A stretch of 64,000 nt of DNA from an uncultured delta proteobacterium. GTDB taxonomy: Bacteria > Desulfobacterota > Desulfomonilia > Desulfomonilales > Desulfomonilaceae. Positions 855-15,472 of the stretch are shown here, piece by piece. The stretch's first letter is position 1. The number at the start of each line of letters is the position of its first letter. Where the stretch lies: NCBI GenBank assembly GCA_963789265.1, contig CAWBKB010000008.1, forward strand, positions 1 to 64,000. The letters are read 5' to 3'. The position numbers and the translations under genes were made by a program. The notes below the pieces were generated by a model. It worked only from the letters and a program-made list of their open reading frames with translations, did not search any database and was not told where the DNA came from.

Positions 855-862
855 AATCATGT

Positions 863-939
863 CGGGACGTGGCTCAGCCTGGTAGAGCACTGCATTCGGG
901 ATGCAGGGGTCGCTGGTTCAAATCCAGTCGTCCCGACCA
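863..939 (+). tRNA. tRNA-Pro (anticodon CGG)
   Basis: 77-nt cloverleaf: acceptor CGGGACG/CGTCCCG, anticodon stem CTGCA/TGCAG with loop TTCGGGA, T-loop GGTTCAAATCC, encoded CCA. Confidence 0.97.
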
Positions 940-1053
940 GAAATTCAAGCTCGCTAATTTATCAGTGCGCACGAGATTTTTCTTTATTTTGGCGCATGCG
1001 CCGTTGGCGATGGTGTAGTGAGACATTAATCATACAGCAAGAGAGATGGCCAG

Positions 1054-1314
1054 ATGTCGGAAGCATGTGCTAAAGAGCCTAACGAAGAGTATGCCGCTTC
1101 TATCAACCGGGCCGCTTACGGCAAAGAAAGGGTGAGGATCGCGCGGGAGGGGCAAGACATTGCTGCTGTGATCCCGATTGAAGACCTGGAATTGTTGGAG
1201 GAATTAGAAGACCGGCTAGACGTCTTGGAAGCGTTTGATGCGATTAAAGAGGCGTTTCAAAAGGGCGGTGTCATTCCTTGGGAACAATTCGAGGCTGAAT
1301 TAGATCGGTCATAG
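1054..1314 (+). CDS. Phd/YefM-family type II antitoxin
   Basis: 86 aa with 'INRAAYGKERVRIAREGQDIAAVIPIEDLELLEELED' and an acidic C-terminus; directly upstream of a RelE toxin. Confidence 0.85.
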   Translation: MSEACAKEPNEEYAASINRAAYGKERVRIAREGQDIAAVIPIEDLELLEELEDRLDVLEAFDAIKEAFQKGGVIPWEQFEAELDRS

Positions 1315-1321
1315 GATCGTC

Positions 1322-1636
1322 TTGGCTTATCGCATTCTTATCACCCCAAAAGCTCAACGGCAAATTAAAGCGCTCCCCCACCCCATTCAGGACCGAATCC
1401 GCTCGACCATAAGAGCCCTGCGCGACAATCCATATCCGCCAGCTACGAAAAAGCTGAAAGGTATTGAGGGAGAGTATCGCATCAGGGTAGGCGATTATCG
1501 GATAGTGTACGTAGTAGAAGGACAGCTTCTTCTGGTTGTCGTTGTGACCGTTGGGCATCGAAAGGACGTTTACGAGCAATTAAGGAAGAAATATCCTTTG
1601 GAATACTTGCAATCTATCCTCAAAGGCGAAAAATAA
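1322..1636 (+). CDS. relE: RelE/ParE-family type II toxin
   Basis: 'PYPPATKKLKG..GEYRIRVGDYRIVYVV...VVVVTVGHRKDVY' RelE signature; TTG start. Confidence 0.9.
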   Translation: MAYRILITPKAQRQIKALPHPIQDRIRSTIRALRDNPYPPATKKLKGIEGEYRIRVGDYRIVYVVEGQLLLVVVVTVGHRKDVYEQLRKKYPLEYLQSILKGEK

Positions 1637-1650
1637 TTCTTAGCTGTAAG

Positions 1651-1786
1651 AGCCTTGAAAATCTTGCTTACAATTTGCTAACATCTTGATCGACTGAGAC
1701 GGACTGAAACGGATTCAATCGGATCGAGGCATATTGAAATGACTTGAGTTTCTGGACAGGTTGTTGATATTATAAGGGTGAAAAGG
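1651..1786 (+). repeat. Upstream arm block U1 (copy 1), repeated at 9342-9478
   Basis: CTTGAAAATCTTG...GACTGAGACGGACTGAAACGGATTCAATCGGATCGA.GCATATTGAAATGACT...TTTCTGGACAGG...AAGGGTGAAAA, shared with the block before att copy E. Confidence 0.9.
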
Positions 1787-1834
1787 GCATTCGGGATGCA
1801 GGGGTCGCTGGTTCAAATCCAGTCGTCCCGACCA
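1787..1834 (+). repeat. tRNA-Pro 3'-half direct repeat (att core, copy B)
   Basis: 48/48 identical to 892-939. Confidence 0.95.
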
Positions 1835-2212
1835 AAAAAGCATTGAGGAGATCAGGGTATTATGCTTGCATGGCGTTGCCCTGATTTTGTCGCTCTGGGG
1901 CTTGGTGTCCAAATAGTGTCCATTAAGAATTCAGATTCGACGCCGCATCATGTTCTTCGGTAATGCGATCAAGAACACTCACAGCCTTTCCACCAGCCCA
2001 ATACCCCCAAGCTGTTTTCGGATAAGATGTCACCGAGAACTTGCGCTTGACCAGGGGCCCGCGGTGAGGCACCCTCAGAAACAGAACAAGAGATGCCTTC
2101 TCGCGGACCTGATCGCGGTTTTGGTGTACTGTTGACTTTTTGAGAGTCCACTGCGATTAGTTCCATGGATTACGATGCTGGCCGCCAATAGTACCTAAAA
2201 GAGGACGACGTT

Positions 2213-2551
2213 ATGACAAAGTTGCACGCTATCTTAATGGTATTCCTTTGTTTTGCGTCTCTTAGTTCCCAAGCGTTGGCAACCGATGCCGTGGCCCTCA
2301 GAGGCTTTCCGGTAATGAAAACTGAAGAGGATTTTAGAAGATTGCTTGAACTCTTTGAAACGGACGACACGAAGGCTGCGGCCGACTATCTTAAGGACCA
2401 CGGATTAGTCATGGCCAAAGGCACCGAAGTAATTCTTTCAGTGGTCGGCTGTGACGGACGATGCGTAAAGTTCAAAGTCAAGGGCGGCCAAACAGAATAT
2501 TGGACTGTACTCATAATGGATGGGGAAAAGGTATTTGAATACAAGAAATGA
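2213..2551 (+). CDS. Exported hypothetical protein
   Basis: RBS GAGGA, signal peptide ending ALA, 112 aa. Confidence 0.7.
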   Translation: MTKLHAILMVFLCFASLSSQALATDAVALRGFPVMKTEEDFRRLLELFETDDTKAAADYLKDHGLVMAKGTEVILSVVGCDGRCVKFKVKGGQTEYWTVLIMDGEKVFEYKK

Positions 2552-2594
2552 GTCTGAGGTTTCCGCGTCGAATCTCGTTGCCGGAAACAGGCTA

Positions 2595-4730
2595 ATGACT
2601 GGCGTGAGTCCTGTAAGAAGGATTGCCACCGAATTAGGCATCAAGATCGAACAGGTGTCGGCAGTGGCTGAGCTTCTAGCAGACGGCTGTACGGTGCCTT
2701 TTATTGCCCGCTACCGCAAGGAGGCCACCGATTCTCTGGACGAAGTCGGCATAACCGCTATTCGAGATCGTCTGGAACAACTTGCAGAACTCAACAAGCG
2801 GCGTGAGGCTATACTCAAATCTCTGGAGGAACGTGAACTCCTCACGGATCACCTTAGAGAAACGATCATGGCCGCAGAGTCAATGGCGGAACTGGAAGAC
2901 ATCTACTTGCAGTATCGGCCGAAGCGGCGAACCAGGGCTGCCATAGCCCGTGAGAAGGGCCTCGAACCGCTTGCGGAACAACTTTATGGACAGGGTTCCA
3001 TTGATCCGACAGTCGAAGCTCGGGGCTTCGTCGATCCCGACAAAGGCGTGCTTACAGCAGAAGATGCTCTGGCAGGAGCCCGAGATATCATCGCGGAAAA
3101 AATTAACGAAGACTCGGCAGTACGCGCGGCCACACGCCGACTTTTTCTTGGAAAAGCGCAGGTACGATCCAGAGTGATTGCAGGAAAAGAAAGCACGGGC
3201 TCGAAATACCAAGATTACTTCGACTGCCGTGAGAATATATCCTCAGCTCCTGGACATCGACTGCTTGCCATGTTCCGAGCCGAAAAAGAAGGCATAATTT
3301 CGCTTCAGATTCGCCCGCCTGAAGACGAAGCCCTGGAGCTGCTCGAGAAGTTGGTTATCAAGGCTCGCAATGAAGCCGCGCGGCAGGTGAGCCTGGCGCT
3401 TGAGGACGGGTATAAACGATTGCTCGCCCCTTCCATGGAGACAGAAACCCGCCAAGAGGCCAAAAAACGGTCTGACGAAGAAGCCATCCGAGTCTTTGCG
3501 GAAAATCTCCGTGAACTCCTTTTAACCCCGCCTCTAGGGGCGAAACGCGTGCTGGCTTTGGATCCCGGCTACCGCACAGGCGCAAAGCTGGTCTGCCTTG
3601 ATGCTCAAGGAAAGCTGCTCCACCATGACACAGTTTATGTCGCCCAATCTCAAAGATTGGCCGAACAGGCTGCTACGACAGTGAAGGAATTGTGTCGACG
3701 TTTTCAGATTGAGGCCATTGCAGTTGGAAACGGGACCGGCGGCCGCGAGACTGAGGCGTTCATCCGGTCTCTCGGTCTGCCGAAAACAATTGCGGTGGTT
3801 ATGGTAAATGAGAGCGGCGCATCGATATATTCCGCCTCCAAGGTTGCCCGAGAAGAGTTCCCAGACCAGGACGTCACAGTCCGCGGATCGGTATCCATCG
3901 GACGTCGCCTGATGGACCCTCTTGCCGAGTTGGTAAAAATAGATCCGAAATCCATAGGCGTCGGCCAGTACCAACACGATGTGGATCAGGCGGCGCTGAA
4001 GCGCAGCGTGGACGACGTGGTCATGAGCTGTGTGAATCGAGTGGGCGTCGAGGTAAATACTGCCAGCAAAGAGCTTCTGGCCTATGTTTCGGGATTGGGA
4101 CCTGTCCTGTCCAAAAATATTGTCGTGCGACGTGACGGCAACGGCCCTTTCCGATCGCGAAAAGAGCTTCTCAAGGTTCCTCGGCTTGGACCCAAGGCAT
4201 TTGAACAGGCTGCCGGATTTCTGCGGATTCGCGATGGCAAAAATCCCCTGGATTCAAGCGCAGTGCACCCTGAAAGCTACCCTATAGTCGAGCAATTTGC
4301 CCGCGACATGGGATGCTCTGTGACGGATCTCATGGAAAACTCTGAATTGCGCAAAAAATTACGCCTCGAGAATTACATTACCGAAAAAGTGGGACCAGCC
4401 ACCCTGAAAGACATCATGGCGGAATTGGCAAAGCCGGGCCGAGATCCTCGAGACAAATTTGAACCCTTCAGTTTCGCAGAGCAGATAACTTCAATCGAAG
4501 ACGTCAAACCAGGCCTGCGGCTGCCGGGCATTGTGACAAACGTGACCAAGTTTGGAGCATTCGTAGACATCGGAGTCCATCACGACGGACTTGTTCATAT
4601 AAGCCAACTAGCGGACCATTTTGTGAAGGACCCGGCAGAAGTGGTAAAGCCACAGCAAAAGGTGATGGTATCGGTGCTGGACGTGGATGTGGAACGAAAC
4701 CGTATTTCACTGTCCATGACGAAAAAGTAG
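2595..4730 (+). CDS. tex: Tex-family RNA-binding transcriptional accessory protein
   Basis: TVPFIARYRKEAT, YqgF-like LALDPGYRTG, VNESGASIYSAS, DPKSIGVGQYQHD, HhH repeats and a C-terminal S1 domain (GAFVDIGVHHDGLVHIS). Start placed at ATG 2595. Confidence 0.95.
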   Translation: MTGVSPVRRIATELGIKIEQVSAVAELLADGCTVPFIARYRKEATDSLDEVGITAIRDRLEQLAELNKRREAILKSLEERELLTDHLRETIMAAESMAELEDIYLQYRPKRRTRAAIAREKGLEPLAEQLYGQGSIDPTVEARGFVDPDKGVLTAEDALAGARDIIAEKINEDSAVRAATRRLFLGKAQVRSRVIAGKESTGSKYQDYFDCRENISSAPGHRLLAMFRAEKEGIISLQIRPPEDEALELLEKLVIKARNEAARQVSLALEDGYKRLLAPSMETETRQEAKKRSDEEAIRVFAENLRELLLTPPLGAKRVLALDPGYRTGAKLVCLDAQGKLLHHDTVYVAQSQRLAEQAATTVKELCRRFQIEAIAVGNGTGGRETEAFIRSLGLPKTIAVVMVNESGASIYSASKVAREEFPDQDVTVRGSVSIGRRLMDPLAELVKIDPKSIGVGQYQHDVDQAALKRSVDDVVMSCVNRVGVEVNTASKELLAYVSGLGPVLSKNIVVRRDGNGPFRSRKELLKVPRLGPKAFEQAAGFLRIRDGKNPLDSSAVHPESYPIVEQFARDMGCSVTDLMENSELRKKLRLENYITEKVGPATLKDIMAELAKPGRDPRDKFEPFSFAEQITSIEDVKPGLRLPGIVTNVTKFGAFVDIGVHHDGLVHISQLADHFVKDPAEVVKPQQKVMVSVLDVDVERNRISLSMTKK

Positions 4731-4904
4731 ATCCCGACCGGTCCCCGGAATTTGCAGCGCTTGTTTTGGTGATTCTGAAGAGCAATGACCGTCTGCTCCG
4801 GATAAAGAGAGAACGGTTTGATACCGACATAGATCGTCGGTATTTTGTAAGCTGAGGATTTACTTACGACGATTTACGGTAGCGGAATGTGTTTCGGGGC
4901 GAGG

Positions 4905-5029
4905 CGCTCAGGGTGCCTTTATGAGAGAACACACAGACGATCGGATCCGCCGGCTGGCTTCGAAATTGGCCCACGAAATGCAGCTTCAGATCATCAGGCC
5001 GGCAAATGAGCGAAAACAATTGACCTGAT
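4905..5029 (+). repeat. Degenerate remnant of downstream arm block D1
   Basis: CTTCAGATCATCAGGCCGGCAAATGAGCGAAAACAATTGACCTGAT matches 6769-6814; there is also a CTCAGGGTGCCTTT partial match. Confidence 0.65.
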
Positions 5030-5228
5030 GTATCCATTCACTTACGTGCGGCAAAGGATTGTCATTGCGAGCGAAGCGAAGCAATCCCTTCCTTCAAACG
5101 GCGCTTAGATTGCCGGTGGGACGGGCATCTTGCCCGTCATCCCCAATAGACAGGCTGGAAGCCTGTCCCACCATGCACTCCTCGCAATGACAGGAGCCAG
5201 AAGATTCCCCGCGTAACTGAAGGAATAC
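5030..5228. mobile_element. MITE family A (17-bp TIR, 8-bp TSD) carrying nested REP-like hairpins
   Basis: TIRs GTATCCATTCACTTACG / CGTAACTGAAGGAATAC; flanks GACCTGAT / GACCCGAT. Confidence 0.85.
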
Positions 5229-5274
5229 GACCCGATCGCTCGTAGGTTCCCAACAAAGATTCGTTTGCAAGACA

Positions 5275-5640
5275 TCAGGCAGCAGAACTGTCTTCTTGCC
5301 ACAGGCCGATTCGATTGCCGTTAGGGTCGAGCAGAACCGCAAACCAGCCTGTTCCCTCAACGGGTTTCCGTGGCACCACGACCTGTGCCCCGAGTTTTTC
5401 GGCCTTTTCCAGAGACTCTTGCACAGATTCCACCTTTACGTAGTTGACCGGCGTATGTGTTGGACCCTGGCGGGCGGTCATTCCGCCTTTGATCTTGTCA
5501 GATCCCATGTCGATCTTGTAATATCTGAACGCACCAGGAATCTTCTCAAAATTCCAGCCGAAAAGCTCTCCGTAGAATTCTTGCGCCGAACTGAAATCGT
5601 CGACAGGTACCTCAAAAAAGCAAACTGTGTTAATCATCAT
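5275..5640 (-). CDS. VOC (glyoxalase/bleomycin resistance) family protein
   Basis: 'VCFFEVPVDD...AQEFYGELFGW' and 'GWFAVLLDPNGNRIGLWQ'. Confidence 0.9.
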   Translation of the reverse strand: MMINTVCFFEVPVDDFSSAQEFYGELFGWNFEKIPGAFRYYKIDMGSDKIKGGMTARQGPTHTPVNYVKVESVQESLEKAEKLGAQVVVPRKPVEGTGWFAVLLDPNGNRIGLWQEDSSAA

Positions 5641-5804
5641 ATTCCACCGCACCAATTCTTGATTTGTTTACACGAAGAAAGTGCTCTACTGACAAGTCTC
5701 ACTTTTCCCGGCATCTGTAAGATTGGATGCGCTGGTACCTGAATCGATTCACAATGCAAATACTATCCCCACCAAAAACATCACGGAAGACAAAGATTCT
5801 GCCC

Positions 5805-6095
5805 TCAATGCAAGGACTTTCCATAGACGATTATGATCGCCGCTTGCATGACTCTCAAGGCATCTTGCAGGCTTGCACCGGGCATCATTAGCTGGTGTTG
5901 GGGTTTGCCACCTAACTGGGTATTAATGGTTACTCCATTAGAGTATTTCTTCAGCGTGATGCTGTATGGCGCTTCCTTTTCAGGGATGGTGATGGTGCAT
6001 TCTCCCGGGGAAGGGTTGATTTCCGGCTTTATTTCTTTTTCCTTTGCCCGCTGCATCCTATTGACAATTTGGTCAAAAACATTCTTTAAGTCCAT
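5805..6095 (-). CDS. Hypothetical protein
   Basis: 96-aa ORF with GGAG RBS; no motif recognised. Confidence 0.55.
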   Translation of the reverse strand: MDLKNVFDQIVNRMQRAKEKEIKPEINPSPGECTITIPEKEAPYSITLKKYSNGVTINTQLGGKPQHQLMMPGASLQDALRVMQAAIIIVYGKSLH

Positions 6096-6212
6096 CCTGA
6101 TTTACTCCCATATCTCCACATAGCTGCCGAACTATTACGCGCTGGATCTTGAAGCAGAGCACGAAGCGTACAGGCGACACGAATCCAAGTCAACGAAAAA
6201 GGCTCTTATTCG

Positions 6213-6415
6213 GTAACCATTCATTTAAGCGCGGGAAAAGATTGTCATTGCGAGCGAAGCGAAGCAATCTTTTCCGTTGAACGCCGGCCGCTTAGATTGC
6301 CGGTGGGACGGGCATCTTGCCCGTCATCCCCAATAGACAGGCTGGAAGCCTATCCCACCATGCACTCCTCGCAATGACAAGGTTCAGAAGATCTCCCGGA
6401 TAAGTGAATGGTCAC
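6213..6415. mobile_element. MITE family A; cargo nearly identical to 5030-5228
   Basis: TIRs GTAACCATTCATTTAAG / GATAAGTGAATGGTCAC; flanks CTTATTCG / CTTCTTCG. Confidence 0.85.
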
Positions 6416-6616
6416 CTTCTTCGGTCATGGAAGGCATCAATAGGCCATCAGAGGACATGTGGAAAAAGGGCGAACGGCCAATCAAATTTCCGGCGTCATG
6501 ATGACGTACACGTTTTTGTAGGGATGAGTCCCGATGTGCGCAGATGAGGTCCGATCGTTTTTGATTTTTCAAGTGAATCGTACCATGGTCTCAGAATAAT
6601 TGGGGCATTGCCTGTC

Positions 6617-6661
6617 TTCGGGATCCTGAGGTCGCTGGATCAAATCCCGTCGTCCCGACCA
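6617..6661 (+). repeat. tRNA-Pro 3'-half direct repeat (att core, copy C)
   Basis: 40/45 identical to 895-939. Confidence 0.9.
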
Positions 6662-6820
6662 GAATTCTTTGAAGACTGTCAGGGTGTGCCCTTTTCGCAA
6701 GAGCGATCCTTACCGGGCAGGATCTGTTAAAATAGGGTCTGGGAAGTGCGTCCGCATTATATCTGTCGCTTCAAATCATCGGGCCGGCAAATGAGCCAAA
6801 AGAATGGACCTGATCCCTCG
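6662..6820 (+). repeat. Downstream arm block D1 (copy 1), repeated at 8756-8885 and partly at 9525-9550
   Basis: GAATTCTTTGAA.ACTGTCAG.GTGTGCCCTTTTCGCAAGAGCGATCCTTA...GGATCTGTTAAAATAG.GTCTGGGAAG; contains a terminator-like hairpin. Confidence 0.9.
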
Positions 6821-6853
6821 CATGCATGCGAGTTGTTTATGCCTGGCCAAAGT

Positions 6854-7879
6854 TCATAGGAATGGAAGCTCAAACTTTAATGTAGCCACTCCTCCTATCA
6901 AGTACTGATGCCATGTGACCGGCAGACTCTGCTCCACACTAATGTTTTGCGGAACGGGCAGATTCTTACCGAAAATGTTCCCCACCTGTGATAATTGATC
7001 GAAAACTGCGTGAGCCACATCAGCCTTGGCGAACAAGCTCAAAGTAAAGTCTCTTGAGGGTACCACCTTGTACGAAAGAAACGCTTCGGCAAAATACCCG
7101 GACTTCGGGTGAGTGTCTCCAACCGAAATTGCCCACGGGAAGCCTTTTATGGAAAGCGTCAGAGAGTGCTGACCGCTTGAAAGGCTGCTCTTGAAACCAA
7201 AGTAAGGAAAAATACTGTCAAGATTGAAGTCGAGCTTTGGTCGTAAACCTGGAAGCTGACTGAGCACCATTGCTTCAAGAGGACCCGGGAGCGTAATCGT
7301 GCCCTGGAGGTAATCGTACCTGACCCCTGCGAGAACCGCGAACTCTGAAGAGGCATGGAAACAGCCTTCCAAGTCAGTTGCAAACCATGTGGTATCGATG
7401 TCAACATTTCCGCTGACGCCCCCCGAGGTGAACACGCCATTAAGAAATCCCGAGGCTACCCCAGAAACCTCTATATGCCTGTTACTTGGAAGAAAATACC
7501 ATCCCTGGAGGTCTGCCGAAAGCCACTTGTTAACTTGCGCCGGAATAGACAATCCTAACCACACTCCGTTTGTGGACCACTCGAGAGTGCCATTGCCATA
7601 ACCGTTATTAAGAGCATTACCGTAAGCGTTGGCCGTTGGCGCAATCTTTATCGAAGAGGCGTTAGGCGACCAAGCGGCAAATAGCCTCGGAGAGTGGAGG
7701 GAAGGCTCGAGCTGCAAGTAAGAGCCAAACCACCCGGCAGTGACGCCTGTATCCCCAGATAGAGTTGATTGCGGATAATTGAATGGCGTGACCCCAGTGA
7801 GAGGTGCTTGAGCGAAGGAATTTGCCATGCAGATTGCCAGGAAGCTCAATACCAAAAAAGCGATGCCCGCATTTTTCAT
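6854..7879 (-). CDS. Exported protein, probable outer-membrane beta-barrel; paralog of 12940-13869
   Basis: Signal peptide, alternating amphipathic strands, shared motifs with the paralog (GVWLG, GxYxxP, GxRYD, LDxNxxSxxPYFG, IG.xATLxF). Confidence 0.65.
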   Translation of the reverse strand: MKNAGIAFLVLSFLAICMANSFAQAPLTGVTPFNYPQSTLSGDTGVTAGWFGSYLQLEPSLHSPRLFAAWSPNASSIKIAPTANAYGNALNNGYGNGTLEWSTNGVWLGLSIPAQVNKWLSADLQGWYFLPSNRHIEVSGVASGFLNGVFTSGGVSGNVDIDTTWFATDLEGCFHASSEFAVLAGVRYDYLQGTITLPGPLEAMVLSQLPGLRPKLDFNLDSIFPYFGFKSSLSSGQHSLTLSIKGFPWAISVGDTHPKSGYFAEAFLSYKVVPSRDFTLSLFAKADVAHAVFDQLSQVGNIFGKNLPVPQNISVEQSLPVTWHQYLIGGVATLKFELPFL

Positions 7880-8707: not shown

Positions 8708-8755
8708 GCATTCCGGATGCATCGGTCGCCGGTTCAAATCCAGTCGTCCCAACCA
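8708..8755 (+). repeat. tRNA-Pro 3'-half direct repeat (att core, copy D)
   Basis: 43/48 identical to 892-939. Confidence 0.9.
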
Positions 8756-8885
8756 GAATTCTTTGAAAACTGTCAGAGTGTGCCCTTTTCGCAAGAGCGA
8801 TCCTTATCTGGCGGGATCTGTTAAAATAGAGTCTGGGAAGCGCTTCTGAATTTGATCTGTCGCGCCAAATCATAAAGCCGGCGAA
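8756..8885 (+). repeat. Downstream arm block D1 (copy 2)
   Basis: Closely matches 6662-6790. Confidence 0.9.
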
Positions 8886-8913
8886 AGTTCAACCTGGTAT
8901 TTCTCCGAAGACA

Positions 8914-9204: not shown

Positions 9205-9341
9205 TAATAGTTTAGCACAGAATCTCGCAAATGCAGCCTTCCGGTTGACGCCACATTATGACTCTCTTCTGTCATGACCAACCGGCGCAAAGATGATATA
9301 TGTGCCCGGTCCGAAATCCTGGTCAGAAAATGTGTTTCCGA

Positions 9342-9478
9342 ACGACTTGAAAATCTTGGTTATATTTTGGTAACAACTTGATGGACTGTGACGGACTGAA
9401 ACGGATTCAATCGGATCGACGCATATTGAAATGACTCGGTTTCTGGACAGGTCGTTGTTTTTGAAAGGGTGAAAAAGG
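9342..9478 (+). repeat. Upstream arm block U1 (copy 2)
   Basis: Closely matches 1651-1786. Confidence 0.9.
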
Positions 9479-9482
9479 TCCT

Positions 9483-9524
9483 GGGATGCAGGGGGCGCTG
9501 GTTCAAATCCAGTCGTCCTAACCA
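9483..9524 (+). repeat. tRNA-Pro 3'-half direct repeat (att core, copy E)
   Basis: 39/42 identical to 898-939; followed by the start of the D1 block (GAATTCTTAGAAGACTGTC). Confidence 0.9.
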
Positions 9525-9720
9525 CGAATTCTTAGAAGACTGTCTGGATGTTACGCTTGTGAAGTGAATCCGGATTCTTTCATTCTTATTCCAGATATCG
9601 AAATTGTCGCCTTCAACCGCTTAACTGTTTTTCCACTAGACTGGGGCGATGCAGTAGTGATATGCCGCATACGGATAAGTTGACTTCTCGAATGCAATAC
9701 CGTAATTCTTTGGAAAGAAC

Positions 9721-10098
9721 ATGCCCTTTGTGGAGCTTTTCGTATATCGGGAGACTGATGGAAGCACGCCCTTCCTGGAATGGTTTGAGGGTCAAGATCA
9801 AAAGTGCAAGGACAAGTGTTTCGCAAAGCTAAAGAGATTGGAGGACGAGGGAGTTGCGTTGCGCCGCCCGGTCGCTGATTATGTTGGTGATGGCATCTAT
9901 GAACTCCGCGTGAGGACTGGCCAGGTTCACTACCGAATTCTATATTTCTTCAGCGGGGCCGGAGTGGAGGTCCTATCTCACGGATTAGCCAAAAAGAAGA
10001 GCATCCCGCCAATGGATATTAATCGAGCGGCTAAGCGCAAAAAGCTTTACGAGCAGGACCCTGTGGAGCACTCTTTCAGGTGGGAGCGACCAAAATGA
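9721..10098 (+). CDS. RelE/HigB-like (Gp49-like) type II toxin
   Basis: 'PFLEWF...LRRPVADYVGDGIYELRV...YRILYFF...VLSHGLAK'. Confidence 0.85.
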   Translation: MPFVELFVYRETDGSTPFLEWFEGQDQKCKDKCFAKLKRLEDEGVALRRPVADYVGDGIYELRVRTGQVHYRILYFFSGAGVEVLSHGLAKKKSIPPMDINRAAKRKKLYEQDPVEHSFRWERPK

Positions 10099-10463
10099 CC
10101 CATGAATCGGAAATAAAGTCAGAAGCTCTAAGCTACCTTTATGATCGCTGCTACAAGGACCATCCAGAGCGCCTGGCATCTCTTGAAGAAGAGATGATCA
10201 ATGTTGAAGTGGCGCAATGCCTTTACAATCTTCGGAGCGAGACCGAATTGACCTTAGAAAAATTTGCCGAGTCCGTCGGTGTGGAAGTTTCCGTGATAGA
10301 AGATCTTGAAGAGGCTGACTACGAAGGGAATGCGCTTGCCACCCTGACACGCATAGCAAGTGTGGTGGGGAAAATTGTCCAACTGAAATGGATAGAAACG
10401 AGACCGGAATCGAAAAGTCCAATCGATTCAGGTCATCCGAAAGTGGAAGTTGTCAACGCTTAA
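10095..10463 (+). CDS. XRE-HTH antitoxin (HigA-like)
   Basis: ATGA overlap with the toxin stop; HTH 'LYNLRSETELTLEKFAESVGVEVSVIEDLEEADYEG'. Confidence 0.8.
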   Translation: MTHESEIKSEALSYLYDRCYKDHPERLASLEEEMINVEVAQCLYNLRSETELTLEKFAESVGVEVSVIEDLEEADYEGNALATLTRIASVVGKIVQLKWIETRPESKSPIDSGHPKVEVVNA

Positions 10464-10576
10464 GTATTGAGGGATCTTCCAGACTTTTTGTACACGTTCT
10501 AAAGAATGAAAACGCACCAATAGAGGATTGAAATCGGTCGGCTTTCCTGAAAGATCTTTCGTTTCTGAAAAGGAAA

Positions 10577-10660
10577 GGGGTCAAGTCTACTCTTGACTCA
10601 TCTTCAAGGGACTCGACAGAGGGCGACCCGGCAATATGAGTCAAGAGTAGATTTGACCCC
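10577..10660. repeat. GGGGTC-type REP-like inverted repeat
   Basis: GGGGTCAAGTCTACTCTTGACTCAT ... ATGAGTCAAGAGTAGATTTGACCCC, a near-perfect 25-bp inverted repeat. Confidence 0.85.
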
Positions 10661-10918
10661 TTGCTCAAGCTCCACGTGATGATGCCAAAGAAACAGAATA
10701 GGATAGACAAGGAGATCTTGATCCTGTTGAGTGTCACCGACAAACCTATAAATTGCCTCGGCAGCTCGCCTGTATCCGTCCGTATATGCATACCACGACA
10801 TGCTTTTCGAAGTGCGTGTGAATGAAACGCATGCATTGAGTTTCCACTCATTAGACTTTGTGTAGAGGCTATCTCCTTCTTTAGGATACTCGATTGTCGC
10901 ACATTCCATCTCTTCCAT
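10604..10918 (-). pseudogene. Truncated hypothetical protein (YPILFLxxHxxEL family), ending inside the REP element
   Basis: RBS GAAGGA plus ATG at 10918; the reading frame enters the repeat at 10660 right after 'LLVYPILFLWHHHVELE'. Confidence 0.55.
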
Positions 10919-11008
10919 GTGTCTGACACCGTCCTTCTCTGGTTCGATATTTTCCCCTTGCCGTCGCATATCCTCACTTGTTGGGGAGTAAATTTTTGAT
11001 AGACCAAG

Positions 11009-11153
11009 GTAACCATCCACTTACGAGGGGGAATTGTCGAACCCCTGTCATTGCGAGGAGTGAAACGACGAAGCAATCTAAGTCCTTAGGGGAAGAGATT
11101 GCTTCGCTTCGCTCGCAATGACAATCTTTCGCCGCGCGTAAGTGAATGGATAC
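11009..11153. mobile_element. MITE family A
   Basis: TIRs GTAACCATCCACTTACG / CGTAAGTGAATGGATAC; perfect 8-bp TSD AGACCAAG (11001-11008, 11154-11161). Confidence 0.9.
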
Positions 11154-11234
11154 AGACCAAGATCGTTTTTGATTGCTATTCACAAGACATGCTTTTGTCA
11201 AGGCTATTCATCGAATCCACAGCCGAAGCGTAGA

Positions 11235-11410
11235 GTGTAGTTTGGTGTCCCAGTCGGGTCTATCGGAAGCGAAAGCTGGGAGCGGCTAGAACGAAGGGCT
11301 TGGGAAAGAGGTAGGGAACCCTGGCGCGTTGCGTGGACGGAGGGAGGTCGCCGGGCGATGCCTGAAATCATCCCGTGACCGGCCCGGCGGTAGCCCAAGG
11401 TGGCGACGTC
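11235..11410 (+). other. Structured non-coding segment; possible orphan IS110-family end or ncRNA
   Basis: GC-rich hairpins (AGCGAAAGCT; CGCCGGGC...GCCCGGCG with inner GATG/CATC), no credible ORF, followed by an AT-rich tract ending in CTTGAC. Confidence 0.35.
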
Positions 11411-12024
11411 AGTTCAGGAATATCTGTTTTAATATTATATTTTCATGGGTTATGAGTAAAGCCTTTAACAACTATTAATTTAATTATTGGTTATTCTTTT
11501 AACTTTCTAAAATTTAATGGTACTTTTTTCTTGACTTCTTGTGAGACATGGGCAATTAAATGAAATCAGATAGTTTGACGTGAAGGAAGGGTGTGTTGAG
11601 AAGTTATGCATTTATCCATCCGTTTTATATCAACTTTTAAATACGGTAACTCGCGCATGGGGATCTCATCAGTCCTGATATTCTGATTCCTTTGCAATCC
11701 TCTTGAATGGCGCCGGCATTGAATGTCCTAAACATCCGGGGCTTTACAGACCCTTACCTTGATTGAATGTCCACTCTCAGGGAATGACGGGTCAAAAAAG
11801 CATCCCTCCGCCGGCGCCATTCCTTCTTTACCACATCTTCACAAAATCCATTTCTTCGGCGTTCCCGTTTCAGTAGTTCCTGTGACTCCAAATAAACATC
11901 CGGATGGCCAAACCACCGCTAAATCCGGGCTGAATCCTTTTCAAGAAAACCGCATCTAAAATGAGTAAATTGAAGGACTGTAAATTGTACAGGAATATCT
12001 AAGGCATGACTTGGAGGTTTTAGC

Positions 12025-12333
12025 ATGAAAATCCAACGATATATCAGCGTAATCGCTGTCCTGGTAGTCGGACTGTTTCTCGTGAATGCGTACTGGCCCG
12101 GAGCCACTTTCGCGAAAGGCAAAGTTCAGTGCTACGTGCCTGCGAATTCATGGAGCGTGCCGGCCACGGCTGGTCCAGGGACAGTCTGTACCACATACGT
12201 GCCGTCCACGAAGGCTCCGGTGTGTTCGGTGGTTACAGCCGCTGAAACCCCGTTCGACGTGGTCGCTTCCATACTGCGGTTACCGTTCGACTTAGGAGAA
12301 TGCATACTTGGAAGATGTCCTCAGTCGCCATGA
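12025..12333 (+). CDS. Small exported Cys-containing hypothetical protein
   Basis: Strong RBS GGAGG, signal peptide, 5 Cys, followed by a hairpin. Confidence 0.7.
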   Translation: MKIQRYISVIAVLVVGLFLVNAYWPGATFAKGKVQCYVPANSWSVPATAGPGTVCTTYVPSTKAPVCSVVTAAETPFDVVASILRLPFDLGECILGRCPQSP

Positions 12334-12377
12334 TGGGGATAAACCGGGTCGGTAATTGAGTAACCGAGGCGAAAGCA

Positions 12378-12409
12378 GGTAGGCTCCGGAAGAAATGCCG
12401 GAGCCTACC
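12378..12409 (+). terminator. Stem-loop, probable terminator
   Basis: GGTAGGCTCCGG-8-CCGGAGCCTACC perfect 12-bp stem; no clear U-tract. Confidence 0.5.
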
Positions 12410-12813
12410 GAGTTAACTGAAGATTGTTAATCCTCGGGACAGTCCTGCCAAAGTTGCGAACTCCTATTTTCAGTTCCGGCATGCCGAGATTTTCTTTGGA
12501 GAGTGAAGACCGGGATTGGGCGACGTGGGATCGCGACGTGAAAACGAAAGCCTGGGTGCTGTTTTCTTCTTTGATGCCTTTGGATCCGCCGCCAATTCTG
12601 TTGGCTCAAAATACACTTTTCGAGCCCAGACTATGCAAGGCGTAATTACGAATGTAATGTGTTTGACGTTAGAATTACTACGCCACAACGATTCGTATGA
12701 TACGGATGACATCTTGATTTACGGACACAGGGCGCGGCTCTGCTTCTATCAATTCTATGGCATCCCCGGAATTGCCGGAATTCTTCATGGCCAAGGATAA
12801 TCGCTCTTTTTGG

Positions 12814-12929
12814 CTAAGTATTCAGTTACGAGGGGGAGTTGTTGGCACCCCGCCATTGCGAGAAGTGAAATCCCGCGTCCCGCGGGGCTCGCAATGACAA
12901 TCTTTCGCCGCTCGTAACTGAGGAATTGT
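12814..12929. mobile_element. MITE family A, degenerate
   Basis: TATTCAGTTACGAGGGGGA ... GCAATGACAATCTTTCGCCGCTCGTAACTGA; internal sequence related to 11009-11153; TSD not recognisable. Confidence 0.7.
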
Positions 12930-12939
12930 TTTTTTCCCG

Positions 12940-13869
12940 TCACCACGGATAAAGTAGACCAGGAAAATCAAACGCCAGCGTCGCAGTCGCGCCAATATTC
13001 CAGCTCTCCGAATGATAGGAGACGTCGTATGGTGCGGCGCCGCCCACAAGGGTTTCGCTGAGAGATGTATTGGTCTTTCCATGAAGCCATGTCCCCCTGC
13101 AGAAGATGGCTACCTGCATTGAAGGGGCCACTCTACCGGAATACTGACCGAACAACTCTACAAACTGTGAGCGGGAAAGCGTATCCCGGCCTCCAAGCCA
13201 GCTCTGCGGCCGGATGACGCCTTCATTCTGACTAAGCGTTGACTCAACGTTGATCGTGGCCCAAGGACTGTAGGTTATCCGAACAGTAACTCCCTCCGGT
13301 TGGCCGCACTGGAGGCCGAAATAGGGGATACTGCTGAGGGCGTTCAGGTCAAGCCTCAGGTTGTTGGTAACGAAGGGGGCGAAAAGGATGTTCAAGATAT
13401 CGGGGCTATCAGTATAGAAATTGTGGTGGTCATAGCGAAATCCCAGGACAACCGCACAGGGGCCATTCACTCGATAGGTCCCAAAGGCGTCCAGATACCA
13501 CCAATCGAGATTTGTTCCTATGCTCGCGGTTTGCAGGCGCGGAGTCGCACCCGGGTCCAGGGTGATCGAACCATCAATGTTGTTCGGACAGAGGTACGAA
13601 CCCTGAACAAACAGGCTCACACAGCTTCCGATTTCGGCTTCGGCTCCGCCACCGAGCCAAACTCCTCCGCGATTGGGGATTTCCAGTTTCACATATCGAA
13701 AGAGGGCTCCCGGAAAAGGGCCGTCGCTGGAGGCGGTTAGCGTCTCTCGGCCCCCTTGCAGGGCTACGTATCCGTCAGCCTTCACCTTAAAGGGCGGTTG
13801 ACCCTGTGCAACCCCACACAGGAAAAGCAATGCCACCAAGCAAAGTAGAATACTCCCCGGACTCTTCAT
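12940..13869 (-). CDS. Exported protein, probable outer-membrane beta-barrel; paralog of 6854-7879
   Basis: RBS GGAGGAGG, signal peptide, shared motifs with the paralog. Confidence 0.65.
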   Translation of the reverse strand: MKSPGSILLCLVALLFLCGVAQGQPPFKVKADGYVALQGGRETLTASSDGPFPGALFRYVKLEIPNRGGVWLGGGAEAEIGSCVSLFVQGSYLCPNNIDGSITLDPGATPRLQTASIGTNLDWWYLDAFGTYRVNGPCAVVLGFRYDHHNFYTDSPDILNILFAPFVTNNLRLDLNALSSIPYFGLQCGQPEGVTVRITYSPWATINVESTLSQNEGVIRPQSWLGGRDTLSRSQFVELFGQYSGRVAPSMQVAIFCRGTWLHGKTNTSLSETLVGGAAPYDVSYHSESWNIGATATLAFDFPGLLYPW

Positions 13870-13957
13870 CTCGGATTACCTCCTCCACACCCACCCGCGA
13901 TGCGATGCATCGGGATTCAAACAAATAAGGAATTCTTACAATGAGATTAGCTTTTTT

Positions 13958-13985
13958 AGCATAAACAGAGCGAAAGAAATGTCAA
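13958..13985 (-). promoter_or_regulatory. sigma70-like promoter for the 13869 gene
   Basis: TTGACA-16-TATGCT on the minus strand. Confidence 0.5.
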
Positions 13986-14003
13986 CAAATACTTGTCGCT
14001 CGT

Positions 14004-14285
14004 GTAAGCATTCACTTACGTGGGGGAAGAGGCATTCTGAGCCTCGAAGAGGCGTACTAAGGATAGCCACGCGTGCAACCCGTGGAACACGAATTCTCCT
14101 GGAATTCTGAATGATCGACCCTGAAAGGGTGCCCGCCTGCAACACTTACAGACAGCATTTGGGCGACCCTTCCAGGGTCCTCTTGGACTGTTATTGTTCC
14201 CTTTTCCGTGGGTTTCACCCACGGCTACTTTTGGGTCGCCCCTTTCGGGGCACTGACATCACGCCCCACGTAACTGAATGCAAAC
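14004..14285. mobile_element. MITE family A with a different hairpin cargo
   Basis: TIRs GTAAGCATTCACTTACG / CGTAACTGAATGCAAAC; perfect 9-bp TSD GTCGCTCGT. Confidence 0.9.
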
Positions 14286-14392
14286 GTCGCTCGTAACTTA
14301 GGGATTACCGACCTGTTCTGATTCTTCCTTGATCGGTTTCTTCCATTCCATTAGTGTTGTCCCCACCGTTGGGAAAGTTAACTGGAGGAAGC

Positions 14393-15043
14393 ATGGTAAA
14401 CATCGCGATCGTGGCGCTTGCTTTGGCATTGCTGGCCGGGCTTCTCGTAGCGGAGAAACTGAAACGGTCCGGACTGATCCTGACTTTCAAGACTCCATTA
14501 TCGGCTCTATTTGTGGCGGTCGCAGTAATTCAACCTCACCCCGTCCAGTCTTACTATCATTGGGTACTTGCAGGCCTGGTCCTGGGCCTTATAGGAGATG
14601 TTTGCCTGGCCCTGAAAGGAGACGAGCCTTTCAAAGCCGGTCTCGTAGCGTTCCTGCTCGGCCACATAATGTACGTGGTCGCCTTTTGGGGGCTCACCAG
14701 GCCGCCGGATTGGCTCACCGCCGGACTCGTGCTCATAGTCTTATTTAGTCTTGGAGCCTTCTTTTGGCTGCGCCCGCACCTTGGTGCCATGAGGGCGCCG
14801 GTGGTCATCTATGTCATCGTGATCAGCATTATGCTTGCCGCGGCTTGGGTGGCTTTCCTTAATCCCGGGACGAACGGGAAAGGTTCCTGGATGATTTTCC
14901 TCGGGGCGTTGTGTTTCTATGTGTCCGATCTCTTCGTGGCCAGGGACAGATTCGTGAAGAACCAATTTATTAATCCTCTTTTGGGCTTACCTCTGTACTA
15001 CGCTGGACAGTTCCTCATCGCGGTCTCCGTGGGATTGGTATGA
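14393..15043 (+). CDS. YhhN-family lysoplasmalogenase-like membrane protein
   Basis: 'GLIGDVCL', 'FKAGLVAFLLGHIMY', 'FYVSDLFVARDRF', 'LYYAGQFLIA'. Confidence 0.9.
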   Translation: MVNIAIVALALALLAGLLVAEKLKRSGLILTFKTPLSALFVAVAVIQPHPVQSYYHWVLAGLVLGLIGDVCLALKGDEPFKAGLVAFLLGHIMYVVAFWGLTRPPDWLTAGLVLIVLFSLGAFFWLRPHLGAMRAPVVIYVIVISIMLAAAWVAFLNPGTNGKGSWMIFLGALCFYVSDLFVARDRFVKNQFINPLLGLPLYYAGQFLIAVSVGLV

Positions 15044-15267
15044 TTCAGATTGGGAGGGCACGCGAAGAACCCGTGACGCCCGCGAAGTGTCCGGCCACGA
15101 GCTGCCTTGCCGGAGCATCTAATGCGCCTCTGCTCTTAAGATTTTTGCGATTTCATTACCCCGAAGCTAGGGGACTCAAAGGCTCCATGGTGGTTTTTTC
15201 ATTGCGACCGGCGCTAAATTTTTGCTCTCACTTTTTAGGATAAAGGGGGTAGATCGGGCACAAGACA

Positions 15268-15378
15268 GGCACTTTTTTGGGGTCACTTAGTGGCCGCTGA
15301 CGCACCTCGATCATTTGCAATGTATGCTGTTTTTACAGAGAAATATCGGAAGACGGCTCCGGAATTAGCCGGTTGTAA
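15268..15378 (+). repeat. Upstream arm block U2 (copy 2)
   Basis: Diverged match to 8590-8707. Confidence 0.8.
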
Positions 15379-15426
15379 GCATTCAGGACGTACGGGTCGG
15401 CGGTTCAAATCCGGCGGTCCCAACCA
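15379..15426 (+). repeat. tRNA-Pro 3'-half direct repeat (att core, copy F, most distal and most decayed)
   Basis: 38/48 identical to 892-939; retains GGTTCAAATCC and ACCA. Confidence 0.8.
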
Positions 15427-15472
15427 CAATTAGAGCATCCGTTGTCCATTTGTTGTCCGTAAGGCTTCCGTT

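Follow-up and report, generated by a model that had tools for sequence, protein, structure and literature searches.

A tRNA-Pro(CGG) locus of a Desulfomonilaceae-like bacterium as a probable decayed array of tandem CIME-like units

Successive island insertion followed by integrase loss is a known route to variable regions in bacterial chromosomes. CIMEs and tandem accretion are defined, and a three-step scenario is given, in PMC5704250. Newer elements are described as pushing older ones outward, with scattered partial tRNAs and fragmented integrases, in a further report (bioRxiv 10.1101/2020.12.28.424599). In this study, we describe an array beside tRNA-Pro(CGG) that is probably a decayed tandem-accretion array of CIME-like units.

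The array resembles CIMEs and tandemly accreted ICE/IME-type islands, for example the ICESt1-related elements of Streptococcus thermophilus, in that attL/attR-type 3'-end repeats bound its units, integration genes are lost, and units are stacked in tandem. It differs in its uncultured Desulfomonilaceae-like host, in its tRNA-Pro(CGG) target, in units as small as 0.8-0.9 kb with a TA (toxin-antitoxin) pair only, and in backbone lying between scars; no conjugation or mobilisation genes were seen, and cis-mobilisation is putative. The Dehalococcoides tandem ssrA islands, as described in PMC3146451, likewise have many small-RNA 3'-end direct repeats downstream; some lack an integration module and are proposed to be cis-mobilizable, and the farther-out region appears fixed and vertically inherited. 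Their recombinase is a CcrB-like serine enzyme and their repeat measures 20 bp, whereas the present locus points to a tyrosine integrase and has long arms and repeats of 42-48 bp. Prochlorococcus tycheposon islands at tRNA genes (bioRxiv 10.1101/2020.12.28.424599) also lie side by side with a partial tRNA between them and with remnant tRNAs and fragmented integrases; here, the integrase lineage and the host are different, no replication/packaging modules were seen, and TA modules prevail among the remnants. Like the present array, chromosomal integrons with TA cassettes (PMC13108822) have an ordered site array, small cargo, and several TA pairs, but this locus lacks intI, attI, and a Pc promoter, its repeats are halves of a tRNA, and its units are multi-gene, on both strands, and have their own promoters.

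The stretch of DNA analysed (64 kb; the window) begins at the end of contig C8, with just 862 bp upstream of tRNA-Pro(CGG). This is the single tRNA found in the window by ARAGORN, and Rfam concurs. The copies of its 3' half were located by BLAST and by a Hamming scan of both strands.

676-862, + strand: tRNA upstream region, paralogous to that of the tRNA-Pro(CGG) on contig C6 (264 bp, 676-939, against C6:462617-462880, 93%)
863-939, + strand: intact tRNA-Pro(CGG), integration target (attL side) (ARAGORN; Rfam RF00005, 65.3 bits)
1787-1834, + strand: att copy 1 (48/48)
6617-6661, + strand: att copy 2 (40/45; 41/48 over 6614-6661)
8708-8755, + strand: att copy 3 (43/48)
9483-9524, + strand: att copy 4 (39/42)
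15379-15426, + strand: att copy 5 (38/48)

An earlier note on this DNA had reported five same-strand 3'-half copies; both searches confirmed their identities and spacings, and shuffles gave none. All five lie on the + strand, as does the tRNA, and the units between successive copies measure 895, 4827, 2094, 769, and 5902 bp. Apart from the tRNA and the five copies, 28/48 was reached nowhere else in the 64 kb on either strand. A 22-mer from the 3' end, allowing <=3 mismatches, matched five places (the tRNA and copies 1-4), and the same search in 100 shuffles gave 0 matches. The earlier note had called the copy nearest the tRNA perfect and the farthest the most decayed; with distance, the decay is not monotonic (100, 85, 90, 93, and 79%). 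Copy 5 shows one compensatory T-stem change from T-A to C-G, read from the sequences. As in conventional tRNA islands, 3'-end direct repeats bound the units and an intact tRNA stands at one end. The acceptor stem of the tRNA at 863-939 is fully paired; the second tRNA-Pro(CGG) of the genome (C6:462804-462880, 2.5 kb from the end of C6) differs in the first two bases. A promoter-like site (TAGACA-17-TATTAT, 826-854) lies upstream of the tRNA, and 814-939 is 85-88% identical to the tRNA loci of the related genomes G004, G006, and G002.

The repeats extend into shared flanks: 1654-1786 with 9346-9482 (88%), 6662-6791 with 8756-8885 (86.5%), and 8608-8707 with 15275-15378 (78%). These and the other arms are as follows.

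940-985, + strand: left-arm relic, 46 bp, homologous to the left end (terminator-like hairpin and last integrase codons) of integrase-bearing islands in a sister species
1654-1786, + strand: right arm, main type, with phased repeats and conserved TGAAAT (88% to 9346-9475)
1835-1927, + strand: flank with a terminator-like hairpin, homologous to the sequence 3' of the intact tRNA in G004, G006, and G002
6662-6791, + strand: left arm of att copy 2 (86.5% to 8756-8885; 72% to C6:462974-463089)
8582-8707, + strand: right arm, second type, before att copy 3
8756-8885, + strand: left arm after att copy 3
9346-9482, + strand: right arm, main type, before att copy 4
15275-15378, + strand: right arm, second type, before att copy 5 (region 15275-15426, 78% to 8608-8760)

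The array holds at least two right-arm types and at least three left-arm types. The main right arm has three phased 10-bp repeats, CGGACTGAAA, CGGATTCAAT, and CGGATCGAGG, at 1700-1729. Its family comprises 15 copies in 9 genomes, each immediately 5' of a partial tRNA-Pro copy, and the columns conserved across the family are the phased repeats and TGAAAT. The second type closes the distal end of a 6.7-kb unit in G013 (L066 7961-8095), where a 219-aa integrase is kept, and also occurs in L121. On the tRNA side, 859-985 matches G001 (L063 6533-6407, 88%) and 890-985 matches L065 7997-8092 (84%); the G001 counterpart of 940-985 overlaps the 3' end of an integrase ORF. Segment 1787-1922 matches L059 16383-16247 (79%) and L061 7046-6910 (78%). 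As in CIMEs, putative attL and attR sites are kept, with cores and arms present and the arm repeats conserved in the 15 copies.

The earlier note saw no recombinase gene in any unit, and none was found here within the sensitivity of the searches. Of 12 PF00589 matches genome-wide, 0 fell on C8. Pfam scans of 34 ORFs and of 93/109 further stop-to-stop frames of >=55 aa (the 16 frames inside Tex, described below, were dropped) revealed none of the recombinase families, and tblastn of three relatives' integrases against 1-24000 gave a best E of 0.6. By these searches, the array has no integrase next to the tRNA-proximal att site, where a conventional island carries one; in having lost these genes, and in showing no conjugation or mobilisation genes, it agrees with CIMEs. 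Nor does this genome hold, elsewhere, a tyrosine integrase flanked by the same arms, as the earlier note had envisaged. The nearest integrase paralog (64% identity) serves a 42-kb tRNA-Val island, bounded by tRNA-Val and a 41-nt 5'-half copy. A 35-aa integrase fragment lies at C1:375003.

Relatives, that is, MAGs labelled Desulfomonilaceae, carry a tyrosine integrase family of roughly 360-420 aa. In 76/80 family loci, the integrase end is <=300 bp from a tRNA or tRNA 3' half, and 74 of these 76 integrases are convergent with the tRNA. tRNA-Pro(CGG) is the neighbour in 20 of the 80 loci (19 convergent); a cognate integrase family thus uses this very site in related genomes. In G001, a 423-aa integrase lies 10 bp from intact tRNA-Pro(CGG), and two further integrases adjoin partial copies, one of 389 aa and the other a near-identical version of the 423-aa gene that is broken into two pieces. 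In G013, two units stand in tandem and both have an integrase of their own; an HTH_17 gene lies just upstream of the integrase in G013 as in G001. A decay series is seen in the fetched loci, where an integrase follows 7/31 CGG-type att copies. These seven comprise three whole genes, one broken into two pieces, one of 219 aa, and fragments of 58 aa and 35 aa, the last being the one at C1:375003 of this genome. When 940-1834 is deleted in silico, the tRNA and its flank match the arrangement in G004, G006, and G002; compared with these three congeners, unit 1 (895 bp, Phd-ParE) looks like an insertion.

The genes between the copies are of mixed origin.

1054-1314, + strand: Phd/YefM antitoxin, unit 1 (Pfam PF02604, 1.8e-6, 28.1 bits, just below the Pfam 29.8-bit cut-off)
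1322-1636, + strand: ParE toxin, unit 1 (Pfam PF05016, 1.4e-14)
2213-4730, + strand: o112 and Tex (transcription accessory protein), unit 2 (six Tex domains in Pfam)
5030-5220, with further copies at 6213-6400 and 11010-11155, strand not assigned: MITE-like dispersed repeat (many copies on every large contig)
5275-5655, - strand: VOC/glyoxalase-family protein (Pfam PF00903; 94% identity in G001)
6854-7903, - strand: o349, exported, outer-membrane beta-barrel-like, cargo of unit 3 (signal peptide and aromatic C-terminus in the translation)
8914-9204, - strand: Phd2, orphan Phd/YefM antitoxin (Pfam PF02604)
9721-10463, + strand: HigB-like toxin (Gp49 family) and HTH antitoxin (Pfam PF05973, 1.7e-16; HTH_25 sub-threshold, 4.2e-4, 20.5 bits against a 24.6-bit cut-off)
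12940-13869, - strand: o309, exported, outer-membrane beta-barrel-like (translation; paralogs on C1, C5, and C3)
14354-15043, + strand: YhhN-family membrane protein, unit 5 (Pfam PF07947, 3e-42)

The cargo list of the earlier note had left out the largest gene of the array, the 736-aa Tex (2520-4730), which is single copy in the genome. Tex is 85-94% identical in 6/6 congeners and 67-78% in other genera, and its identity tracks taxonomy (94, 85-88, 67-78, and 63-65%). G002, G004, G005, and G006 retain the o112-Tex pair, and no tRNA-Pro fragment was found near it in the fetched flanks of these four genomes. The genes beside Tex in G006 and G002 are orthologous to those of C8:52-60 kb and run in the reverse order. 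G006 and G002 also have a YhhN downstream of tRNA-Pro; it shares 72-75% identity with the one described here, and the TyrRS of these two genomes 85-87%. Judged from these comparisons, o112-Tex is vertically inherited backbone inside unit 2 and YhhN has long been part of the tRNA-Pro locus. Since two units carry inherited backbone genes, rearrangement besides insertion would have shaped the array.

Comparison with relatives differs by unit: o112-Tex (unit 2) and YhhN (unit 5) are vertically inherited, whereas unit 1 is absent at this site in G004, G006, and G002 and unit 3 in G001, differences that are observed and whose direction we infer. Phd-ParE is the only cargo of unit 1. This TA pair has orthologs (81% nt) on G004:C46 and on G002:C2, and no piece of a tRNA lies within 1.5 kb of them. 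G001 lacks unit 3 and also 5029-5248, the place of the MITE-like repeat. o349 is a 27% paralog of o309, and a family search for it gave no match. Phd2 is 94% identical in G001, 81% in G003, and 78% in G015; its ParE partner has been lost here and is kept in G015, G003, and G069. The HigB-like toxin and HTH antitoxin have paralogous pairs elsewhere in the genome.

We consider it likely that tRNA-Pro(CGG) is a hotspot in a Desulfomonilaceae-like host, at which repeated tyrosine-integrase island insertions were followed by decay to CIME-like remnants. In each island, the integrase gene would have lain at the end nearest the tRNA, in convergent orientation to it, with an excisionase-type HTH_17 gene just upstream. 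The island's attP would have combined a right arm bearing phased 10-bp repeats, a copy of ~48 bp from the 3' half of the tRNA, and a left arm that contains a terminator-like hairpin. On integration, the tRNA would be rebuilt from the island's copy and the earlier 3' half displaced outward, so that later arrivals would stack beside the tRNA (tandem accretion). Deletions may then have removed every integrase, leaving att scars and arms, a few cargo genes, and TA modules, which would resist deletion. In chromosomal integrons, TA pairs have been proposed to stabilise the array. At least one rearrangement may have put the chromosomal backbone o112-Tex between scars. With integrases deleted, scars and cargo left, and backbone between scars, the units would be CIME-like remnants rather than cassettes of dedicated capture. 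We infer the order of events, the loss of integrases by deletion, and the stabilisation by TA modules; the sites may still be able to recombine.

The earlier note had offered two alternatives, eroded tandem islands and an integron-analogous capture system with a trans-acting integrase. The former is strengthened by cognate integrases beside the tRNA in relatives, by arms beside att copies of other species, and by the 46-bp relic. The traces of derivation by deletion from an autonomous element are this relic and the shared arm types only, and several observations sit less easily with decay. The relic could be conserved not as a dead gene but as a piece of an att arm, none of the five units contains an integrase fragment long enough to be recognised, and the main right-arm type was found at the far end of no sampled island with a whole integrase. 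Arms and att copies are 74-98% alike between genera, which suggests constraint and sites in use rather than passive scars, and if C6 joins C8, a gap between them could hide an integrase. The latter alternative, a dedicated capture platform in which mini-circles are inserted at the tRNA by a resident integrase whose gene lies elsewhere, and are expressed as cassettes, is extremely improbable. The att-type sites are ordered on one strand, and the small TA-rich cargo recalls the TA cassettes of chromosomal integrons (PMC13108822). However, no integrase flanked by these arms was found genome-wide and none at all on the contig, and the closest paralog belongs to the tRNA-Val-bounded island. The units contain from 1 to >6 ORFs on both strands, inherited Tex and YhhN among them, rather than single promoterless ORFs in the same orientation, each with an attC; at the array end stands a tRNA gene and not intI with its attI and cassette promoter. 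The repeats are tRNA halves, and Rfam matched nothing but the tRNA in 1-18000. The diversity of right and left arms and the ordinary islands with their own integrase at tRNA-Pro(CGG) in relatives also argue against such a platform. An assembly or binning artefact, in which repeats were mis-joined or another strain's contig entered the bin, is very unlikely, even though the bin comprises 9 contigs with an estimated contamination of 6%, the window abuts a contig end, and another contig has the second tRNA-Pro locus, 93% alike, at its end. Copies 2-5 differ from one another and from the tRNA, and the arms are just 78-88% alike; they are therefore not collapsed or duplicated reads. Tex and the rest of 1-16000 occur once in the genome, and G001 independently has the order o61, o112, Tex, VOC, o96, Phd2, right arm, partial copy. 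Short contigs from run X1 match eight places located between 2.6 and 15 kb of the window, with 0 differing letters in seven and 1 in one.

A further explanation concerns the small units alone: units 1 and 4 (895 and 769 bp) and the corresponding units of G015 (1134 bp) and G003 (981 bp) might be non-autonomous mini-integrative elements, each no more than an attP made up of a right arm, a 48-bp core, and a short left arm that carries a TA pair, excised as ~1 kb circles and integrated in trans by the integrase of a co-resident or incoming island of the same family. This is unlikely. In a weaker version of the capture alternative, the integrase of an arriving island may act in trans to move TA units of ~0.8-1.1 kb. 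Among the sampled loci, 4/4 distinct att-flanked units <1.2 kb consist of arms and a Phd/ParE module or remnant, nothing else; this pattern fits retention by TA addiction, or possibly trans-mobilisable mini-elements, and is as compatible with a mini-element as with erosion. Unit 1 is arms and TA genes only between 48/48 direct repeats and is absent at the site in G004, G006, and G002, and in G004 and G002 its TA genes are found, without the arms, in chromosomal surroundings that are unrelated. Arms of the same kind enclose two TA pairs that differ from each other (44-48% identity) and lie in opposite orientation, and the arm repeats are conserved across genera. The Phd2-ParE unit lies between tRNA-Ala(CGC) halves in G003 and between tRNA-Pro halves in G015 and G000, and has therefore moved at least once. 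However, the divergence of the Phd2 module tracks the species tree (94/81/78% in G001/G003/G015 against 94/88/78% for Tex). Near-identical copies were not found in different genomes, nor was a cognate integrase in this one. Circle and empty-site junctions were likewise not seen, in data with little power to reveal them. The restriction to att-flanked units is partly an ascertainment effect, and TA addiction alone predicts TA modules as the last survivors of deletion.

Similar arrangements occur elsewhere in this genome. A second integrase-less array lies at tRNA-Pro(GGG) (C5:788772-798849), and tRNA-Val half copies on C6 show a like pattern.

The G000 genome (6.06 Mb, nine contigs) contributes the first 64 kb of contig C8 to the window, in which ARAGORN detected a single tRNA, tRNA-Pro(CGG), and Rfam concurred. 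Copies of its 3' half were searched for on both strands of the window by BLAST and a Hamming scan. The tRNA, the five copies (att copies 1 to 5) and the units between them are as follows.

tRNA-Pro(CGG), its 3'-half copies and the units that they delimit
863-939, tRNA-Pro(CGG)
940-1834, unit 1, Phd/YefM and ParE
1787-1834, + strand, att copy 1, 48/48
1835-6661, unit 2, two small ORFs, 736-aa Tex, VOC enzyme, small ORF, two dispersed MITE-like repeats
6617-6661, + strand, att copy 2, 40/45
6662-8755, unit 3, exported protein resembling an outer-membrane barrel, small ORF
8708-8755, + strand, att copy 3, 43/48
8756-9524, unit 4, orphan Phd (Phd2)
9483-9524, + strand, att copy 4, 39/42
9525-15426, unit 5, HigB/HigA-like pair, small ORFs, second exported barrel-like protein, YhhN
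15379-15426, + strand, att copy 5, 38/48

The array is confirmed. Both searches recovered the five copies of the earlier note, all on the + strand, and the unit spacings given there are exact. No further site of at least 28/48 was found by the Hamming scan on either strand of the rest of the window. A 22-mer of the tRNA 3' end occurred, with at most three mismatches, at five places in the window versus none in 100 shuffles. Decay with distance from the tRNA holds for the nearest (100%) and farthest (79%) copies, but the fall is not steady (100, 85, 90, 93, and 79%). Derivation of copies 2-5 from other tRNA-Pro genes was rejected, as all five copies are nearest to the CGG gene.

The small cargo listed in the earlier note (toxin-antitoxin [TA] genes, a VOC enzyme, exported proteins, and YhhN) is present, but the list missed the 736-aa Tex. 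In line with the statement that no unit encodes a recombinase, none was detectable. PF00589 had 12 matches genome-wide and none on C8. No recombinase family was detected in 34 ORFs. The same held for 93 additional open frames, taken from 109 with a length of 55 aa or more after the 16 internal to Tex were excluded. tblastn with three sister-species integrases as queries gave no match better than E 0.6 in 1-24000. The unnamed ORFs had no match in NCBIfam, PHROGs, or PADLOC. A dispersed MITE- or REP-like repeat of approximately 150-190 bp was observed at 5030-5220, 6213-6400, 11010-11155, and 12871-12921; many copies of this family lie on every large contig of G000, and the copy at 5029-5248 is missing at the same place in the related genome G001.

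Because o742, a 742-aa ORF (15473-17701, minus strand), is placed where an integrase would lie, ending 46 bp past copy 5, it was examined as a recombinase. Searches of Pfam, NCBIfam, PHROGs, PADLOC, and PDB sequences gave no match for it, and none of the 69 other genomes of the family that were searched contained a homolog. Elsewhere, 345 homologs were found in Thermodesulfobacteriota-type MAGs; the best 120 of these are almost all approximately 742 aa long with 55-70% identity, and some sources name a TPR repeat protein. No evidence from the domain, family, and homolog searches points to a recombinase, and this candidate was rejected. o742 was probably acquired horizontally. Beyond it, at 17939-20600, lies an adhE-type aldehyde/alcohol dehydrogenase in two overlapping frames split near 19041-19051, the first covering Aldedh profile positions 1-340 and the second positions 350-460 plus Fe-ADH. 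The split is a frameshift, a pseudogene, or a sequencing error.

Sequence similarity was also found in the flanks of the copies. In the right arms (before the core), the 133 bp preceding copies 1 and 4 are 88% alike, and approximately 100 bp preceding copies 3 and 5 are 78% alike. In the left arms (after the core), the 130 bp following copies 2 and 3 are 86.5% alike and resemble the flank after a second tRNA-Pro(CGG) on contig C6. The earlier note suggested looking for a tyrosine integrase elsewhere flanked by the same arms; no integrase adjoins any of these arms elsewhere in G000. The main right-arm family comprises 15 copies in nine genomes of four genera, each immediately upstream of a partial tRNA-Pro. 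Its conserved columns contain three to four GGA(T/C) motifs approximately 10-11 nt apart and TGAAAT; the corresponding window repeats, at 1700-1729, read CGGACTGAAA, CGGATTCAAT, and CGGATCGAGG. We interpret these repeats as putative arm-type integrase sites. Promoter-like sites within the right arms (1655-1684, 1744-1773, and 8645-8672) were given little weight because the 18 sigma-70-type sites found compare with 12.3 +/- 3.7 in shuffles. The second right-arm type, that of copies 3 and 5, ends a 6.7-kb unit of G013 that retains a 219-aa integrase, and it also occurs in locus L121. Immediately after the tRNA, 940-985 is 88% identical to the stretch following the tRNA in G001, where the counterpart holds a terminator-like hairpin and the last codons of an integrase.

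The cognate integrases were found in relatives. The tRNA is present in 41/41 genomes of the first sample, many with extra 3' halves. In G001, a member of the same genus, a 423-aa tyrosine integrase (PF00589 and Int_N) ends 10 bp from the intact tRNA 3' end in convergent orientation; a near-identical copy, split in two pieces, lies beside a partial tRNA, and a 389-aa relative adjoins another partial copy. G013 carries two tandem units, each with its own integrase (364 and 219 aa) beside a partial copy. An HTH_17 gene is directly upstream of the integrase in G001 and G013. Across the fetched loci, a complete or fragmentary integrase comes after 7 of 31 CGG-type copies, the pieces including 58 aa in G004 and 35 aa in G000 (C1:375003). 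Species-representative genomes were then scanned with an alignment of four integrases as the query, yielding 80 loci, nearly all in MAGs labelled Desulfomonilaceae, Desulfomonile, or Desulfomonilales. In 76 of the 80 loci, the integrase ends no more than 300 bp from a tRNA or tRNA 3' half, convergently in 74 of the 76, and the targets include Val(CAC) (21), Pro(CGG) (20), Glu(CTC) (11), Ala(CGC) (10), and Glu(TTC) (8). The nearest homolog in G000 (64% identity, C5:382144-383388) belongs to a 42-kb tRNA-Val(CAC) island and not to a Pro site.

Several further att-associated structures were observed. The 42-kb island (C5:382005-424362) has as its limits tRNA-Val(CAC) and a 41-nt stretch that duplicates the 5' half of this tRNA perfectly; the island integrase lies upstream of and co-oriented with the tRNA, an unusual 5'-side layout. 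Two orphan tRNA-Val 3' halves occur at C6:162857-162905 and C6:169778-169829. In G001, a 288-aa tyrosine recombinase and a 424-aa ORF form a two-gene module beside partial tRNA-Pro (L064 4818-6962 and L065 5425-7569); five loci of the recombinase were found there, four with an identical score and one slightly off, and the module looks like a separate mobile element landing in or near att sites. Half or partial Pro(CGG), Val(CAC), and Asn(GTT) lie within 1 kb on one strand in G003 (L070 7016-7995), a mixed stack of att scars.

Comparison with relatives suggests which DNA was inserted and which was resident. In G004, G006, and G002, the tRNA is preceded by FtsJ, TyrRS, and a small ORF, a context that in G000 belongs to the C6 tRNA copy. 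In these three genomes, the intact tRNA is followed by a sequence that matches the one after copy 1 (1835-1927), so removing 940-1834 restores their layout, and on this comparison we read unit 1 as an insertion. The flank after copy 1 was also considered as the native downstream flank of the tRNA; because a tRNA-Ala-type copy in G003 is followed by a hairpin flank closely similar to it, it may be an island left arm instead. Orthologs of the unit 1 TA pair in G004 and G002 are 81% identical, without arms and with no tRNA fragment within 1.5 kb; those in G004 adjoin orthologs of C1:746 kb.

G001 shows, with 85-94% identity, the order o61, o112, Tex, VOC, o96, Phd2, right arm, and partial copy; unit 3 is absent there, and the intact tRNA is inverted. 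Tex is single-copy in G000 and was found in 6/6 congeners (85-94% identity) as well as in other genera (67-78%). G002, G004, G005, and G006 retain the o112-Tex pair, and the flanks fetched for them contain no tRNA-Pro fragment. The neighbours of the pair in G006 and G002 are orthologs of C8:52-60 kb in inverted orientation, from which we infer that backbone DNA came to lie between att copies through a rearrangement that had one breakpoint inside the array. YhhN is an old resident of the locus, since it lies downstream of tRNA-Pro in G006 and G002 (72-75% identity; TyrRS there, 85-87%). With backbone genes in two of the five intervals, the array offers a lesson for annotation: an interval between repeated tRNA halves is not necessarily a mobile cassette.

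Read evidence came from Logan contigs aligned to 1-18000; these were short and shallow, and uncovered parts were left uninterpreted. No usable excision joint was found in these data. A joint from 890 to 15394 in run X1, which has one 22-letter side and includes 16 foreign letters, was rejected as evidence of excision; its source is probably the tRNA of another organism. A joint from 1835 to 9527 in run X3 (side of 40) was also rejected, as it comes from a relative approximately 6% diverged, whose att copy may just be a closer match for copy 1 than for copy 4. Exact scans of metagenome contigs, in which the species is possibly absent, gave neither the empty-site pattern (tRNA 5' half, 48 N, copy 1 flank) nor the junction expected of a circularized unit 1 (right arm, 48 N, left arm).

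We consider it likely that CIME-like units accumulated here by tandem accretion, at a tRNA-Pro hotspot used across the family, and that the resulting array has since decayed. The locus fits the known tandem-accretion/CIME kind: passages of PMC5704250 describe tandem accretion and CIMEs that lost integration and transfer genes and kept attL and attR. Tandem ssrA islands, some without an integration module, are described for Dehalococcoides in part of PMC3146451. For Prochlorococcus islands, sections of a preprint describe the outward displacement of older elements by newer ones, and remnants with partial tRNAs and fragmented integrases (bioRxiv 10.1101/2020.12.28.424599). The integron analogy of the earlier note fails on the integrase and on cassette structure, and the repeats here are tRNA halves.

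The smallest units bear on a different explanation. In all fetched loci, four distinct pairs of same-type tRNA halves lie less than 1.2 kb apart.

Mini-units between tRNA halves
Unit 4, 769 bp
Unit 1, 895 bp
G003 unit, 981 bp
G015 unit, 1134 bp

A Phd/ParE module or remnant was found in 4/4. These 0.8-1.1 kb units could be minimal integrase-less integrative elements, a complete attP of approximately 250-300 bp with Phd-ParE as the sole cargo, moved in trans and retained by the toxin. The tRNA-targeting integrases of passing islands would move them, and they would be selfish "TA on an att site" elements seeding and stabilizing tRNA hotspots across Desulfomonilaceae. The 4/4 count leaves room for this. 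The mini-units are located at tRNA-Pro(CGG) and, in one genome, tRNA-Ala(CGC): the G003 mini-unit has a Phd2-type pair and a similar arm, but between tRNA-Ala(CGC) halves. However, Phd2 identity tracks the species tree (G001 94%, G003 81%, and G015 78%) and therefore speaks against recent spread; we regard movement in trans as unlikely. The pattern also fits TA modules as the last survivors of deletion. The recurrent att-TA-att mini-unit is the only part that possibly adds to current knowledge; should it prove mobile in trans, it would represent the smallest type of integrative element and would directly connect TA addiction with how integration hotspots persist.

For one site, in an uncultured lineage that has received little study, the loci show island decay at several stages: whole integrase islands in sister species, a truncated integrase in one relative, the 58- and 35-aa fragments (the latter at another site in G000), and, in the window array, bare att scars with TA modules.

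The second tRNA-Pro(CGG) of G000 (C6:462617-465392, L013) lies in the TyrRS context typical of the genus, and the contig ends 2.5 kb away. Changes in the first two bases of this tRNA break the acceptor stem, whereas the C8 copy is intact. It is followed by a left arm resembling those after copies 2 and 3, as well as by an AMP-binding enzyme and a 108-aa DnaA_C-HTH protein with paralogs at C1:91548-91829 and C4:128597-128878 (185 bp from tRNA-Ala(CGC)). C6 may join the start of C8.

A second integrase-less array in G000 lies at tRNA-Pro(GGG) (C5:788772-798849; L014 2773-12850), with no PF00589 match nearby. Its three partial copies end at 791183, 797320, and 798849 (45, 42, and 35 of 48 versus the GGG gene) and delimit units of 2335, 6137, and 1529 bp, whose cargo comprises a FIST protein, a trypsin-like peptidase, a 1526-aa ORF, MaoC, and DUF1295 proteins. 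Another GGG-type half copy is located at C8:107630-107677 on the minus strand.
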